Shown: positions 18,801 to 33,800, counted from the stretch's first letter. The stretch is 43,154 bases of DNA from Acaryochloridaceae cyanobacterium VAR_48_metabat_390 (GCA_031422435.1 JANPLU010000082.1:1-43154); one strand, 5' to 3'. Made by a program: the numbers.

Positions 18801-21800
18801 TTCGTCTAAAAGACGCTTTCGCTCTTCTTCGTCTACAAGCTGCACTTCTAAACTCAGACGCTCATACTCGCTAGCAGCATGGCGATGATATTCACCAGCA
18901 GCATTAAGCTTTTCGTGCATTTCACGCACCGTTTGGGACTGTAGACTGAGTTCTTCTTCTTGTTCTCTGACCAAACGGGCAGATTTAATCCAGTCTTTCT
19001 GGAGGGTTTCGACCGTGCCCTGAAGCTGATCTAGGGGCATCTGTTCCAAGGCATCACTTTGATGGACTGGCGAAAGGTCAAAGTCTAGAGGAAGCGATGC
19101 CTCGAGGTAATGGGGAGAGGCCGACATCGCCGCGACCGGATCCTCTGGGGCAATATGGGGAGAGGCCGCAATGAAATAATAGGGATCCGGTTCATGAATA
19201 GGCTGCACCTGATTTAAAACCAGCCCTAGAAATGGTTTGCCAATTTGAGCTAGTACCTGCCGTGCAAAATCGGCGCTGTCCGTATCAAGTTTGCCAGGTT
19301 GTGCCACCAGAAGAACGCCATCTACAAGCTGGGCAAGACGCACCGTATCGGTGCCAGTTTTAAGAGCAGCCGTATCTAAAATTACGAAGTCGTAATGGTT
19401 GGATAGATTGGCAAGCAGAGCAACCATTTGATGAGAATCTAGGTTAGATATTGCCTCACTCTCAGGCTTACCTGAAAAAATTAAATCTAAGTTAGAGAAA
19501 ATGCGCTGGACAGCAGAGTGCCAAGGCTTTTGATTCGCCAAAATATCGCTTAGCCCCACCTCAGCCGACCAAGACCAAATATATTGCTGCACAGAATCTT
19601 GAAAATTTGCTTCTACTAAGATGACTGAGTGCCCATGGTGCGCTAAGGCGATCGCCAAATTTGCGGCAACGGTCGAAGTTCCTTCTTGCGCTAAGGTACT
19701 GGTTACAGCCAGCACCTTTTGCCCTTGACCCAAAGACTGTAGGTTGCTGCGCAGCAACCGATAGGCTTCGCTCACCTTATGGTGGGGAAAGTCTACCAAA
19801 TACAGACGTGGCACTGCGCCTTCAGCCGTTCTGCGATGAAACAGTGAAAACTGCTGCTGTCCAAACAAGGGAATTACGCCCACGATGGGCAAATTGAGCC
19901 GCCGTCGTACTTCATCTACCGTTCGCAGAGATTTATTGAAAGATTCAAGGCCGTACAGCGTCAGAAATGCCAGCACAGCTCCCAGAATAAATCCTGTGGC
20001 AGCGTAGAGAGATTTACGAGGCGCACTAGGCAGCTCGGGAATCACCGCTTCCGCAATAATTCTGGCGTTGCCTTGAGCTTGATTAGACGCCACCTGCGTT
20101 TCCTGAAGTTTTTTCAGAAGGGTGCCATAGGAATTTTGAGCCACGTCTAGCTGACGCTCCAGAGCATTCTGCTGCTGCTCTAGAGTGGGGAGCAGAGCCA
20201 CCTGCTGGCGGTAGGTCTTCAAGCTCTCTGATAGGGTCGAAATTTCTTGCTGAAGACCCTTTTGAGAGGCTTCGAGGCTCACCAGTTGCGCCGTAAGATC
20301 TTGTCGGAGTTTGCCAATCAGCGTATCTGAATCAATGGCGGTACTAGAACCTGAGATTTTGGCTGCTTTCTGGGCAAAGAGCTGTTTGAGATCCTCTAAA
20401 TTGCCCTTTAACGCCGCAACGCTAGGATGGGATTCTGTGAGGCGGTTCCGGTCTAACACCAGTTGAGACTGAGTCTGCTGAATTTTAGTGAGCAAATCCT
20501 GCACTTCTGGAGATTGACTCAACGAAGAAAGGGCAACAGCCTGCTGTGGACTAATGCCTAGCTTCGCCGTTATGACACCTTCTTGTGCTGAAGTATTGGC
20601 GAGCTGAGATTGGGCATCGGCAATTTGCTTCTGAAGTCCGTCAATGCGAGCTTGGGCAGACGTAACCTGCTCTTTTAGGGTGAGGATCTGATAGGTTTGC
20701 TTAAACTGACGCAGCTTACCCTCGGCAGTCTCGACCTGCTTTTTGGCAGTGGGGAGCTGATCGGCAATAAATTGGCGGGTGGCATTCACTTCTCCTTGGT
20801 TCGAGCGAACCCCGCTCTGCAAGTAAATCTGCATCAGGGTGTTAACCGCCTGTGCTGCCTTTTTAGGGTCGCGGTCTTTAAATTCAATCTGAAGAATATC
20901 CGCGTCTTTGACGTGGTTTACGCTTAAATTTTCTAGAAATTCTGCGGTGCCAAACGGTTTTCCATCCGGCAAAGTCCAGTGCAGCTGCTGGAGGGTTTTT
21001 TCAATAATGGGCTGAGACTGAATCACCTGGGTCTCCGTCAGCAGAGGATTGCTCGTCTCAGTGACCGAGTCCATTTGATCGATGCTTTTACCCAGATCGG
21101 TCAAGGATGAAACGGGGTTTTCTCGATTGAGCTTGAGCTTGCTTTCGGCGACAAATGTCGGGCTTTGGATGTAGGCAAGAACGATAGACAGCCCTAGAAC
21201 AGAGAAAAAAACGGCTCCAGCAGGTAGCCAATGATATTTTAAAAGCTTTCGATAATCGCTGAAGCCGACGGGTAGCGCACTTGGAGTTTCCATTGAAGGG
21301 TCTATTCGGAAGGGTTAGATATTCTGGAAATAATGAGACTGAGCTGACGCTTACCCCCGCGCCCCACCCTAAGCGCGTAAGCACTTAATTCAACCCCTAA
21401 AATTGATGGGTTAGCTGTGGGCTTACTATTTGAATATTTAAAGGTGACACCATTCTACCGAAGCCGTCTAAGATTGTCGCTGAATTGTTGTAAAAATGCG
21501 ATTATGCTTTGCCTCAGTCAAGTCGGCTAACCCATTTAATACAGCAGCTTATCTAGATTATTGCGCCTTCTTAAGAACATCGGTGTAGATATCATCATGC
21601 AGACGCAAAATGTGGGACACATCGTACTGCTGAACCTGTCGACGACCCTGAATTCCTAAGTTTTTACCGGCTTCAGGATGATCGATAATCCAGGCCATTT
21701 CTGCCGCAATTGCGGCACTATCACCCACGCTCACCAGTCTGCCTGCACCCTCTTTGAGAAGATCCTCAGTGCCGCGAATTTTGGTGCCAATGACAGGCAC

Positions 21801-30800: not shown

Positions 30801-33800
30801 TGATCTAACGCTGCCTTAAAGAGCGATCGCAGGCCCACCTCTAGATGGGGCGGTACTTGAGCATAGGCATCTTGAACCACAACCAAATTCTCGTTTGCCG
30901 TAGGCTCATAAAACTCATCGGCAAGAAATAGCTCTTCGTGGAGTTTTTCGCCAGGTCGTAGGCCAGTATAAACAATCTCAATCTCTGAATCCACCTCATA
31001 CCCAGACAGCCGAATTAGATCTTGAGCCAAGTCCACAATTTTAATGGGGTGGCCCATATTCAGCATAAAAATTTCGCCCCCCTGGCTCATCACCGTGGCC
31101 TGCAAAACCAGATGAACCGCCTCAGGAATCGTCATAAAATACCGTGTCACCTCAGGATGCGTAATCGTCACTGGTCCACCTCGCTCAATCTGGCCTTTCA
31201 AGGTGGGGACAACGCTTCCTCGGCTACCCAAAACATTCCCAAATCGCACCACGCAAAACTGCTTTTGCTTCTGCTGTGCCGCCTTGAGAACAATCAGCTC
31301 ACCCATCCGTTTGCTAGCCCCCATCAGGCTAGTCGGGTTTACCGCTTTGTCGGTTGAGATCATCACTAACTGGCTGATATTGTGCGCCAGCGCCACATCC
31401 ACCAAATTTTGGGTTCCCAAAACATTATTCATAATTGCTTCAGGTGGGTTTAGCTCCATCATCGGCACATGCTTATGCGCCGCCGCATGAAAAACCACTT
31501 CAGGCCTAAATCTCCGAAAGGCGTAGTCTAGACGAACATGATCTTTGAGATCTGCAATTAAAACGCTCAGGCGAATCGACAGGTGAGGCTGAGTCGTTTT
31601 CAGCACCTGCAGCACCTGGTTCAGCTCCTGCTGAATCAAGAACACAGAATTTTCGCCATGCCCCATCAGAATTAACTCTGCCGGATGGCACTGAAGCACC
31701 TGACGACAGATCTCACTACCAATAGACCCTCCCGCCCCCGTCACCAAAACCCGCCTAGACCGCAAATTCGGGGCAACGCCCTCTAAATCTGAGCAAATGG
31801 TGTCTCGGCGCAAAAGGTCTTCAATCTTGACGTCCCTCACGCTTCGGGGGTTAACGGTGCCGTTAATAATTTCATGAATGCTGGGTAGCGTGCTAGTCGC
31901 AATACCGTAACTTTGACACATCTGCACAATCTCACGAATGGCTGCTCCACCCGCCGAGGGAATCGCAATAATGACTCGTTTTATCTCAAGGCTCACCGCC
32001 AAATCAGGAAGCTGCGCACGAGAACCCCGTACCGAAATACCCCGAATCTTAAGGTCGAGCTTTTTAGGATCATCATCTACAAACGCGATTGGCTCTAGGG
32101 TAGAGCGTCCACCCTGTCGAATCGCCTCAACCAGAGCCACCCCAGCACTTCCTGCACCGTAGATAATCACCCGTTCACGAGCCTGTATTGAACGTCGCTG
32201 ATGCCGCGAATTTTCAAACGCTTTAACGCTAAAGCGCACTGCCCCAACGCCAATAAAGGTCAATAGCCCATCCAATAGAGGGAAAGACCGAGGCAGCAGA
32301 AAAATATCTGAAACGCTGAAAAGAGACATGACTGAGAGAATCATGCTCTCTAGCAAACTAATGGAAGCGCAGGCCGCAGCAATTTCGAGCAGATTTTCAG
32401 TACTCGCAAATCGCCAGCAGCCCCTATAGCACCCTAAGACAGCCAGACATACAATTTTTAAAAGTATGAATACAGACAGAGACAGAATAAGGCCATAAGC
32501 AAAACTTCTGATTAAAAGCCAGTCATCTAAGCGCAGCCACAGAGTCAAGAATGGCGTACAGGTAAATATACAAATATCGGCAATGAGAAAATTAAAATTT
32601 TTTAACTTTAAAGCGCTTTGACAAAGCTTAAGAAACATTGCTTTTAGCATAGAAACAAGACTCCTGTCTCATCATATTTCATTTTTTCTTGATGACAAGG
32701 TTTTGCTAGACAGCTTATTGAACCATAGCTGCAACTTCGGGGCTTGACAAAGTTCTATCTGTAAATTAAGAATAGGTTAACGCTGAAGACAAGTTCCTAA
32801 GTAATGTTCGCTGGCGACTTGAGAAAACGTAGAAGTTGTTTCTGTATAAGCGCGTGCTTACTTTTACTTAAGCTCAGTAGAAGCAAAGATTCATAGCCTA
32901 GGAAAATTCAACCATTGCTCGGGAAATTTCTGAGCCAGATTTTAATCTAGGGGCAAACAACCTTCAGATTCTAGATTTTGCTAAACAGCTACTTCTGCCG
33001 TCAAATTCGCAAATCTTAGCGCTAGGCCTTAACAATTTAAGGCTGTAAATCTACTAAAAGCCTAGGTCTCTCTAATTTATATGGGTAAGCTCATTGGTAT
33101 TTTTTAGATGATAACTCTTTCAATTAAGCGAATTCAAAGTCTTCTGATCTTTGTTTTGATGGGTCTTTTTTTTGCCAGCTTGTTGAGCAACACCTACAAA
33201 TATCTGTTGGTCAGGGCAATAAATTTATCTTCCGTTGGCGATAGCCGAATTCGTGGTCTTGGAATTGCTCGTTGGTTTGACTTCGATGCCGAGAACAATA
33301 TACCAACCTATTACTCCGTTATTCTACTGTTTGGCAGCGCTGTAATTCTGGGAATCATTGCTGTCCAGCATGATCACCAAAATCGTTCCTTTGCACTGCA
33401 TTGGAAGGCTTTATCACTATTTTTCCTGCTGATGTCTTTAGATGAAGCCGTTGGATTTCATGAAAATTTGATTGAGCCGATGAAGGCAGTTTTACACCTG
33501 CGCGGCGTTTTTAGCTTCGTCTGGCTTATTCCAGCGCTATTTTTAGTATTGCTCATGGGGATTTACTACATTCCCTTTCTAAAATCTTTATCTCGCAAAA
33601 CTCGATCAGGGTTTCTGATCAGCGCCACAATATATTTCTTGGGTGTATTTGTGTTAGAAGCCATTGACGGCACCTACCTGAATTATTTTGGCACATCGAT
33701 CCAAACGGCAGGCGCAGGATGGTCCGGCATGACTTACGCAATTTTGACCTCTCTAGAGGAGTTGTGCGAGTTTTTAGGTGTCATCAGCTTTATTAGTGTG

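Follow-up and report, generated by a model that had tools for sequence, protein, structure and literature searches.

The window analysed here, a 43,154-nt stretch from the Acaryochloridaceae cyanobacterium VAR_48_metabat_390 (GCA_031422435.1 JANPLU010000082.1:1-43154), carries a run of eight minus-strand ORFs, neighbours overlapping by up to 38 nt or lying up to 39 nt apart, the first of which joins a CapD-type dehydratase to a C-terminal EAL domain in one protein (Table 1). The genome-wide survey's note had described this fusion, together with an operon of a flippase, a sulfotransferase, a Wzy polymerase, three glycosyltransferases and one protein without a family, and both descriptions were reproduced by the ORFs and Pfam matches obtained here. 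A Wzc-like gene 264 nt downstream of the eight is part of the same system.

Table 1 Features of the polysaccharide locus, in the order of transcription
Feature	Position in window	Strand	Basis or remark
Promoter-like site TTGTCA-16-TATGAT, ending 21 nt before the ATG of the fusion gene	32671..32698	-	Weak
Fusion gene P0001, 941 aa: membrane anchor, CoA_binding_3, PglF/CapD-type dehydratase and degenerate EAL	29825..32650	-	
Likely membrane anchor, residues 19-152	32195..32596	-	Four long predicted helices
Polysacc_synt_2 short-chain dehydrogenase domain, residues 301-592, PglF-like	30875..31750	-	TGAGGSIG, STDKAV, MGASK
Linker, residues 638-676, low confidence, poorly conserved	30623..30739	-	pLDDT <50
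Degenerate EAL domain, residues 686-925 (H720, N839, T898; loop 6 shorter by five residues)	29876..30595	-	
Wzx-type flippase (Polysacc_synt)	28517..29821	-	Pfam
Sulfotransferase (Sulfotransfer_4/_1; PKTGTT and RD motifs)	27606..28502	-	
GT4 glycosyltransferase	26456..27643	-	
Wzy-type polymerase (Wzy_C)	25192..26478	-	Pfam
Conserved cluster protein without a Pfam family	23955..25199	-	
GT4 glycosyltransferase	22737..23951	-	
GT4 glycosyltransferase	21558..22697	-	
Wzc-like chain-length/tyrosine-kinase protein (GNVR and P-loop), HmpF-like C-terminal tail	18639..21293	-	

The sulfotransferase call, made earlier in the survey, is sound at the level of sequence (Sulfotransfer_4 38.8 bits against a cut-off of 22.8, Sulfotransfer_1 30.8 against 22, and the PKTGTT motif), and the product may be sulfated. 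For the protein without a Pfam family, resemblance to a GH42-like TIM-barrel hydrolase is given as a lead only. The set of Wzx/Wzy pathway genes is present in the genome, with Wzx, Wzy, three GT4 enzymes and the Wzc-like PCP in the window, and OPX and Bac_transf elsewhere. The operon itself contains no priming transferase, aminotransferase or outer-membrane exporter; candidates for all three lie on other contigs, including four Bac_transf genes, an OPX gene on contig C123, and a small Bac_transf, a FemAB-like gene and a DegT gene together on contig C34, and the distant OPX and Bac_transf genes possibly serve this cluster. Upstream of the fusion gene there was no c-di-GMP riboswitch or other RNA element, a whole-window Rfam scan at gathering thresholds yielding one tRNA (5396-5467), and counts of promoters and terminators were about or below shuffled expectation (e.g., 17 promoter-like sites in the region vs 16.4 expected).

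The dehydratase part of the fusion protein looks intact in its domains and motifs. Four N-terminal helices in the AF2 secondary structure (residues 19-41, 44-71, 84-111, and 123-152) are probably transmembrane, and Pfam places a CoA_binding_3 domain at residues 72-247. The dehydrogenase domain matches Polysacc_synt_2 (PF02719) at E 4.2e-115 and 384 bits against a cut-off of 20.2, and in a profile search of the genome the fusion protein was the sole strong match to this family (388 bits vs at most 57 for others). Its closest solved relative is PglF (5bju, E 1.3e-80), to which the structure model of the dehydratase corresponds with a TM of 0.91. The Rossmann GxxGxxG is present as TGAGGSIG, aligned with the same motif of PglF, while STDKAV is identical in the two proteins and MGASK aligns with the MGCTK of PglF (Met-xxx-Lys). 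In PglF the Thr-Asp-Lys is catalytic and a Met replaces the SDR Tyr; the variant names T395V, D396N/K397A, and M405Y occur in PDB titles. Equivalog models for PseB and FnlA scored far below their cut-offs. From these matches we infer a UDP-HexNAc 4,6-dehydratase of the PglF/CapD type, and with it the sugar that it would make.

Beyond the dehydratase, residues 593-685 show a family identity of 0.33 and a dN/dS of 0.48, and the linker within them is predicted to be disordered, with a pTM of only 0.58 for the fusion protein model, so that the model shows no rigid connection through which an allosteric signal could pass. A complex prediction between the dehydratase part (290-636) and the EAL part (678-941) returned a score of 0.00, which carries no weight either way.

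The EAL domain matches PF00563 over profile positions 3-236 of 236 (E 5.4e-44, 150.8 bits against a cut-off of 31.3) and is modelled confidently, with pLDDT of 73-97 in 10-residue blocks over residues 681-930. The organism has c-di-GMP enzymes: besides the fusion there are 13 other EAL domains in the genome and 18 GGDEF matches over the cut-off. Nine of the 14 have the canonical residue at each of the 13 sites and 11 carry DDFG followed by the G-x-SS loop; the fusion protein scores 153.9 bits in the genome-wide scan, and its EAL Pfam score is the lowest of the 14. The translation reads FEALLHW, LDNFG, FKIDRS, ATGIES, and GQGYF, so the EAL and QGY motifs and the KxD lysine are kept with DNFG for DDFG and TGIE for EGVE, as the survey had reported, and alignment to solved EAL enzymes puts the motifs where expected, with the changed positions in metal-binding columns. 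Two departures go beyond that report, namely EALxR to EALxH (His720) and a loop 6 (DFGTGYSS) that lacks five residues.

In RocR numbering, metal is coordinated by E175, N233, E265, D295, D296, and E352 (PMC7911125), the catalytic site is intact only where E352 is retained, and the residues that recognise c-di-GMP include the EALxR arginine (R179) and D296 (PMC2952852). Among E175, N233, E265, E268, D295, K316, and E352, all of which an active EAL domain would keep, six are present here and E352 is T898. The EAL Glu and all first-metal ligands are kept; only the second-metal site and loop 6 have degenerated, along with the EALxR Arg in the query's subclade. The change at the two metal positions runs through 121 family sequences, where the D296 equivalent is N in 99, H in 12, Q in seven, R in two, and K in one, and never D, and the E352 equivalent is T in 69, A in 26, M in 14, V in five, I in three, D in two, and S in two, and never E. 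In contrast to these, the equivalents of Q161, E175, E355, and Q372 are kept in 121/121 members, D295 in 120, N233, E265, and E268 in 119, D318 in 116, and K316 in 112, being replaced in the other nine. The R179 equivalent is His in the query and in 21 of its 22 nearest relatives. With both R179 and D296 changed, two of four recognition residues differ in the query, and since the EALxR Arg is lost in its own subclade, the case for c-di-GMP binding is weaker for this protein than for other family members.

The fusion occurs in 9/400 other sampled Cyanobacteriota genomes, a proportion that reproduces the 3/200 on which the survey had called it rare. In absolute terms the family is not rare: at least 120 fusion clusters at 90% identity are spread over many cyanobacterial groups, and the earlier statement understates it, since all of the best 120 protein clusters carry both domains. 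EAL is absent from 144 of the best 150 dehydratase representatives at 50% identity. The tree fits one gain of the fusion and two losses; with one origin, the pattern is old and maintained. The EAL domain has been lost at least twice in close relatives that retain the dehydratase, which therefore does not need it, and a split gene in unfused relatives was ruled out, as none of ten such loci (L011-L020) had an EAL HMM match in any frame. We interpret these data as pointing to one cyanobacterial family, probably of single origin, widespread and unstudied. A scan of related loci with the linker and EAL alignment was left out of these counts because its patterns are generic EAL motifs; by coverage 2 of its 80 loci (L021, L022) were fusion members, and in the remaining loci the match began no earlier than about residue 39 of the 340-aa query. 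Gene context was annotated for 7/11 fusion loci (leaving out L103, L104, L107, and L109, all of the genus of L101). The fusion gene heads a Wzx/Wzy cluster in all six relatives with downstream DNA, and the gene order of the sulfotransferase-bearing cluster here recurs in L021; relatives' clusters carry a small Bac_transf, and some also DegT and PglD-like or FemAB-like genes.

We propose that the inactive EAL domain is a c-di-GMP receptor gating the supply of the priming sugar, a reading to which we give an even chance. The domain, tied to the dehydratase C-terminus by a flexible linker of ~40 residues, has lost the two ligands that serve only the second metal (equivalent to D296 and E352) together with the loop-6 motif; the ligands of the first metal are retained, as are most residues that contact c-di-GMP. 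A rise in c-di-GMP would lead to its binding by the EAL domain and so alter how active the dehydratase is, how it oligomerises or which partners it contacts, with more 4-keto-6-deoxy sugar as the presumed outcome; this sugar would be aminated, acylated and put on a lipid carrier by enzymes whose genes lie in other parts of the genome, and control of the whole exopolysaccharide pathway would fall on the earliest committed step of precursor supply. The wider claim, that CapD-EAL proteins are cyanobacteria-wide c-di-GMP effectors whose dead EAL domain acts directly as the switch of a membrane-bound UDP-sugar 4,6-dehydratase in a Wzx/Wzy pathway, we put forward more tentatively, as somewhat short of an even chance.

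Some degenerate EAL proteins, such as YdiV, BluF, and CsrD, are not known to bind c-di-GMP at all, and the domain could likewise be a ligand-independent interaction or oligomerisation module, docking the dehydratase to, for example, the priming transferase, the Wzc kinase or a diguanylate cyclase. The three substitutions and the loop-6 deletion touch both the pocket and the usual dimer surface, two of the listed recognition residues (R179 and D296; PMC2952852) are changed, and a flexible linker would suit such a role. Against this stand ten pocket residues with no evident function beyond binding nucleotide or metal, kept in 112-121 of the 121 sequences at identities down to 43%; a surface used for docking alone would not be expected to be so conserved, and we consider this explanation unlikely, if still a serious competitor of the receptor.

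The presence of all first-metal ligands, the Lys and the EAL Glu would also allow a weak one-metal phosphodiesterase, acting as a local c-di-GMP sink or as a trigger enzyme that couples messenger turnover to precursor synthesis, and the best sequence and structure matches of the EAL part are the active enzymes BifA, Bd1971, PdeA, MucR, and MorA. Yet neither the first Glu of ExxE nor the second Asp of DDFG occurs in any of the 121 sequences, and in TBD1265 the E703A change, at that first Glu, abolishes PDE activity, with loop 6 (DFG(T/A)GYSS), here five residues short, also essential (PMC12943098). Published mutagenesis thus leads us to regard the domain as probably hydrolytically dead, and residual activity as improbable. 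The view already taken in the survey's note, that sensing is more likely than hydrolysis, is supported by the family-wide substitutions, the conservation of the other pocket residues and this mutagenesis.

Sensing of another nucleotide, such as pGpG, cGAMP or a linear dinucleotide, seems very unlikely: changes at the R179 and D296 positions could shift specificity, and PMC7288161 has among its references an EAL enzyme that degrades cGAMP as well as c-di-GMP, but nothing here points to another ligand and the retained contacts are those for c-di-GMP. That the EAL domain is functionless and decaying, as its two losses in close relatives and its lowest score in the genome might suggest, is scarcely credible given a dN/dS of 0.24 (vs 0.145 for the dehydratase), which indicates a domain kept for a purpose, pocket residues that stay invariant even in members whose EAL part is as little as 29% identical to that of the query, and the confident model.

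Exopolysaccharide underlies cyanobacterial mats, crusts, and blooms, and sulfated polymers are of applied interest (PMC8205485). Downstream c-di-GMP targets in cyanobacteria are poorly investigated, the accessible text of a 2023 review describing only XcsA (PilZ) and CdgR as receptors (PMC10124867). No dehydratase-EAL fusion (CapD, PglF, WbpM or Polysacc_synt_2 with EAL) and no c-di-GMP control at priming-sugar supply was found in the literature searched, which for the fusion was partly judged by title or abstract. The terms "polysaccharide", "CapD", and "epimerase" are absent from the accessible text of a census (PMC3747582), as is "polysaccharide" from that of the review, and the supplementary tables of both could list the architecture. 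The receptor reading, if true, would add a receptor type to the two described in that review and offer a natural example of an EAL domain minus only its second-metal site. The CapD-EAL family is a concrete, testable candidate for a c-di-GMP effector tied to exopolysaccharide production, with the two natural EAL losses as built-in comparison strains.

Among known systems, FimX and LapD have degenerate EAL domains that bind c-di-GMP without cleaving it (PMC7288161), and the likeness lies in an EAL fold that lacks metal-ligand residues and serves, here by proposal, as a binding module for an attached or partner output. Theirs are GGDEF-EAL tandems on pilus or adhesin machinery, whereas the fusion has a lone EAL domain on a sugar-nucleotide dehydratase, and LapD (3pjt) is only a weak sequence match to it (E 4.8e-7). 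With the membrane-bound UDP-GlcNAc 4,6-dehydratases PglF (Campylobacter jejuni), CapD, and WbpM the fusion shares an N-terminal membrane region, a CoA_binding_3-like domain, STDKAV and a Met for the SDR Tyr, and the DegT, PglD-like, and small Bac_transf genes in relatives' clusters recall the Pgl pathway; unlike the fusion, the solved chains matching its dehydratase part have no signalling domain named on them. The xss (synechan) cluster of Synechocystis PCC 6803 likewise combines Wzx/Wzy with sulfotransferase(s) and a PCP gene, its OPX gene also lying elsewhere in the genome. Its regulators, however, are a two-component system and the transcription factor XssQ, a priming transferase gene is included in the cluster, and the accessible text of its report mentions no dehydratase-EAL gene (PMC8205485). 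Also comparable are the PilZ domains of the cellulose synthases XcsA and BcsA and the degenerate GGDEF domain of PelD (covered in PMC7288161), in which a messenger-binding domain in a biosynthetic protein controls polysaccharide output post-translationally, XcsA being the sole polysaccharide-linked cyanobacterial receptor described in the accessible text of PMC10124867. Those receptors are part of synthase-type complexes for polymerisation or export, whereas in the fusion the sensor would be an EAL domain acting on an enzyme that makes a precursor for a Wzx/Wzy pathway in the cytoplasm, which, if true, would move c-di-GMP control from the polymerising complex to the nucleotide-sugar enzyme.

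The 941-aa fusion protein g01958 combines a CoA_binding_3 domain (residues 72-247), a Polysacc_synt_2 domain (301-592; 4.2e-115) and an EAL domain (686-925; 5.4e-44) in Pfam searches, and is the sole strong Polysacc_synt_2 match of its genome (388 bits vs at most 57 for others). The nearest solved protein to its dehydratase half is Campylobacter jejuni PglF (WlaL; 5bju, E 1.3e-80), with the nucleotide-binding TGAGGSIG of the query at the same position as SGAGGTIG of PglF, STDKAV identical in both, and MGASK aligned with MGCTK. The PDB titles of PglF structures name the variants T395V, D396N/K397A, and M405Y, and we take the roles of the Thr-Asp-Lys residues, and of the Met replacing the SDR tyrosine, to be those known from the PglF literature. 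A full-length AlphaFold2 model based on 115 family sequences (mean pLDDT 84.5, pTM 0.58) matched PglF (target TM-score 0.90-0.92) and has four long helices in residues 19-152, which we read as a predicted membrane anchor. An N-terminal membrane anchor is typical of long CapD/WbpM/PglF proteins.

The genome-wide survey's note had called this fusion rare, which holds per genome but not for the family as a whole. Homologues at E <= 1e-60 occurred in 114 of 400 other sampled Cyanobacteriota genomes, with full-length coverage in nine (open frames 929-956 aa; seven genomes in one genus, two in two further families), and none of the four genomes from the window's own family among these 400 had a match. 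An EAL domain was present in six of the best 150 matches (representatives at 50% identity), the other 144 being EAL-less dehydratases, mostly ~600-700 aa long, with further fused parts in some longer ones. By contrast, the best 120 matches among 5.8 billion clustered proteins all had both PF02719 and PF00563, at 43-92% identity to the query and lengths of 838-1447 aa, and their source names, where given, were cyanobacterial throughout, including Altericista (78%), Thermosynechococcaceae, Moorena, Microcoleus, Pleurocapsa, Phormidium, Leptolyngbyaceae, Gloeocapsa PCC 7428, Gloeocapsopsis, Xenococcaceae, Stanieria PCC 7437, and Oscillatoriaceae. Hence, the fusion is uncommon per genome, yet its family is sizeable and phylogenetically broad. 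The member of 1447 aa (P0112) has extra FAD/NAD oxidoreductase Pfam families beside the dehydratase and EAL domains. Many members bear the JGI label 'FlaA1/EpsC-like NDP-sugar epimerase/EAL domain-containing protein', so the architecture is already known as annotated sequence. Its functional treatment was not found in the literature: our search returned no report of a dehydratase-EAL fusion, and in the main texts of a cyanobacterial census (PMC3747582) and review (PMC10124867) the word 'polysaccharide' is absent, as is 'CapD' from the census.

Phylogenetically, a dehydratase-only FastTree with 132 fused and 147 unfused rows (279 in total, after ten incomplete-coverage rows were dropped) needed three fused/unfused label changes, and the smallest clade with all fused rows had 142 leaves, of which the ten unfused were cyanobacterial proteins of roughly 690 aa. 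In a quick IQ-TREE tree (LG+G4) of 60 hand-picked rows (35 fused, these ten close unfused, and 15 unfused outgroup), fused and close unfused rows formed one clade (SH-aLRT 99), within which nine unfused proteins, all from one family, sat next to two fused proteins (SH-aLRT 98) and the tenth next to a further fused one (SH-aLRT 89), and the starred branches forced three changes. Rooted on the outgroup, whose branches are long, the tree suggests a single gain and two losses of the fusion. EAL-like sequence was not found within about 1.5 kb of the ten unfused genes.

The EAL motifs were placed by alignment to solved EAL enzymes and to this genome's 13 other EAL domains, and conservation was counted in an alignment of the query and its best 120 matches.

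EAL residues of the fusion protein at RocR reference positions, and their state in 121 family sequences
RocR position	Query residue	Query state	Family
Q161	Q701	kept	kept 121/121
E175	E716	kept	kept 121/121
R179 (EALxR)	H720	changed	R 99, H 22
N233	N776	kept	kept 119/121
E265	E808	kept	kept 119/121
E268	E811	kept	kept 119/121
D295	D838	kept	kept 120/121
D296	N839	changed	N 99, H 12, Q 7, R 2, K 1; never D
K316	K862	kept	kept 112/121
D318	D864	kept	kept 116/121
E352	T898	changed	T 69, A 26, M 14, V 5, I 3, D 2, S 2; never E
E355	E901	kept	kept 121/121
Q372	Q918	kept	kept 121/121

The two substitutions named in the survey's note, at D296 and E352, were thus correct, and to them are added an EALxR arginine replaced by His and a loop 6 five residues short (DNFG-----LSPL vs DDFGTGYSSLSYL in others). 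We take D296 and E352, after the TBD1265 structure work, to be second-metal ligands, and the residue counts then indicate a selective loss of the two second-metal-specific ligands, with the remaining nucleotide and first-metal pocket kept. His replaces R179 in the query itself and in 21 of the 22 sequences closest to it, which accounts for all 22 cases. Of the 14 EAL domains in this genome, nine have the canonical residue at each of the 13 positions, and the fusion's scores lowest in Pfam. Two further degenerate EAL domains are encoded elsewhere in the genome, one with D296N, D318R, E352K, and E355D (contig C115) and one with R179, N233, E265, D296, K316, and D318 changed (contig C30).

PMC7911125 assigns metal coordination to E175, N233, E265, D295, D296, and E352. 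In PMC12943098, loop 6 is essential, and in TBD1265 replacing the first Glu of ExxE abolished activity while the second was dispensable; in a comparative study (PMC2952852), an EAL site counts as intact only with E352, and c-di-GMP is recognized by Q161, R179, D296, and D318. On these published criteria for metal ligands, ExxE, loop 6, and E352, the fusion's EAL domain, judged from its residues, is not an active phosphodiesterase.

Within the family, the dehydratase had a mean pairwise identity of 0.72, the EAL domain 0.46, and the linker 0.33, and Nei-Gojobori dN/dS on ten genes (pairs with dS outside 0.05-2 dropped) had medians of 0.145 for the dehydratase (300-592; 21/45 usable pairs), 0.240 for the EAL domain (686-925; 22/45), and 0.478 for the linker (593-685; 30/45). 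Purifying selection acts on the EAL domain.

Features of the window, its genome and related loci
Sequence	Feature	Position	Strand	Remark
Window	Eight ORFs	21558-32650	-	
Window	Fusion gene, first ORF	29825-32650	-	941-aa translation; Pfam
Window	Wzx-type flippase			following ORFs in this order
Window	Sulfotransferase			
Window	GT4			
Window	Wzy-type polymerase			
Window	No-Pfam protein	23955-25199	-	
Window	GT4			
Window	GT4			
Window	Wzc-like chain-length/tyrosine-kinase gene	18639-21293	-	strand of operon; 264 nt after operon
Window	Leucine-rich-repeat + Ser/Thr/Tyr protein kinase	16652-18025	-	just past Wzc gene
Window	142-aa ORF	6480-6908	+	
Window	267-aa ORF	33108-33911	+	divergent, upstream of fusion gene
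C115	Degenerate EAL	4380-5834	-	same genome
C30	Degenerate EAL	2505-6284	+	same genome
L022	Protein kinase gene	20110-20952	+	
L102	DUF4874-DUF4832 protein	5047-6495	+	
L108	DUF4874-DUF4832 protein	12807-14225	-	

The fusion gene heads eight ORFs whose tight junctions, overlapping by up to 38 nt or separated by up to 39 nt, fit one transcription unit. A pair of promoter-like hexamers ends 21 nt 5' of the fusion-gene ATG, though such sites are no commoner in the region than by chance, and an Rfam scan of the window returned one tRNA and nothing else. A priming transferase, an aminotransferase, and an outer-membrane exporter are absent from the window, whose remaining genes are unrelated housekeeping. 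Elsewhere in the genome, contig C34 groups a 227-aa Bac_transf with GT47-like, FemAB-like, and DegT genes, and contig C123 has the only Poly_export (OPX) match.

The Wzc-like protein (884 aa, GNVR plus tyrosine kinase) has a C-terminal tail (residues 746-867) matching the model of the pilus motility taxis protein HmpF (E 6.5e-31), an unusual extra on a polysaccharide co-polymerase. The no-Pfam product has a hydrophobic N-terminal stretch, is kept at the same cluster position in locus L101 (40% identity, E 9e-97), and resembles GH42-type TIM-barrel hydrolase clusters in a language-model feature search (scores 0.95-0.96); it may be a polymer-trimming glycosidase. A protein kinase gene closes the related L022 cluster, as one lies past the Wzc gene here. 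The divergent 267-aa ORF, with no Pfam or NCBIfam match, occupies the position of a Wzc-like gene in relatives, and the 142-aa ORF, matching only the C-terminal end of the IS66 transposase (profile positions 195-283 of 284), is probably a transposase remnant.

Context was annotated at seven of 11 fusion loci, one of which (L106) stops at the fusion gene. All six with downstream DNA (L101, L102, L105, L108, L021, and L022) have flippase and GT4 genes after the fusion gene, and four have a Wzy-family match, L105 and L108 carrying family-less ORFs there. A small Bac_transf priming transferase lies downstream in four of the six; in L021 it is upstream on the other strand, and none was seen in the annotated L022 locus. 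L101, L108, and L022 each carry an upstream Wzc-like gene in the opposite orientation. Variable genes include DegT (L101, L108), PglD-like acetyltransferase (L101), FemAB-like (L102), ATP-grasp (L108), PhyH, methyltransferases, and glycoside-hydrolase-like or DUF4874/DUF4832 proteins; in L102 and L108 a DUF4874-DUF4832 protein immediately follows the fusion gene and precedes a MurJ-type flippase. L021, a Thermosynechococcaceae MAG contig, shares the window's flippase-sulfotransferase-GT4 order but leaves the cluster after one GT4, and no sulfotransferase was present in the five other clusters scanned; any sulfation would thus be a trait of the window's branch rather than of the family.

With 18 GGDEF and 14 EAL matches, a c-di-GMP network operates in this genome, and the most economical reading of the fusion's EAL domain is a non-hydrolysing c-di-GMP receptor. 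The domain would bind c-di-GMP without cleavage and control the attached dehydratase that opens the polysaccharide pathway. Since residues 638-676 have pLDDT below 50, control would be expected through docking or dimerisation of a tethered EAL domain rather than a rigid helix. c-di-GMP is usually linked to matrix production, and from this link we infer that high c-di-GMP would activate the enzyme. The dehydratase product may be aminated and acylated by the enzymes encoded on C34 before it serves as the priming sugar.

The main weakness of this reading is that c-di-GMP binding is putative and that the EALxR arginine, a recognition residue, is His in the query's subclade. There are three chief rivals. 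A ligand-free interaction module would accommodate the changed R179 and D296, and would leave unexplained a nucleotide pocket kept across the family; residual one-metal hydrolysis would draw on the kept first-metal pocket, and would have to proceed with a shortened loop 6 and a replaced E352; and another ligand might be admitted by the changed R179 and D296, with the retained contacts being those used for c-di-GMP. Among degenerate EAL receptors, this one would have a new output and a new point of control. FimX and LapD have degenerate EAL domains that serve as non-hydrolysing receptors (PMC7288161), and in this the fusion's EAL domain would resemble them; unlike in those cases, the EAL domain here is joined to a pathway-opening enzyme.
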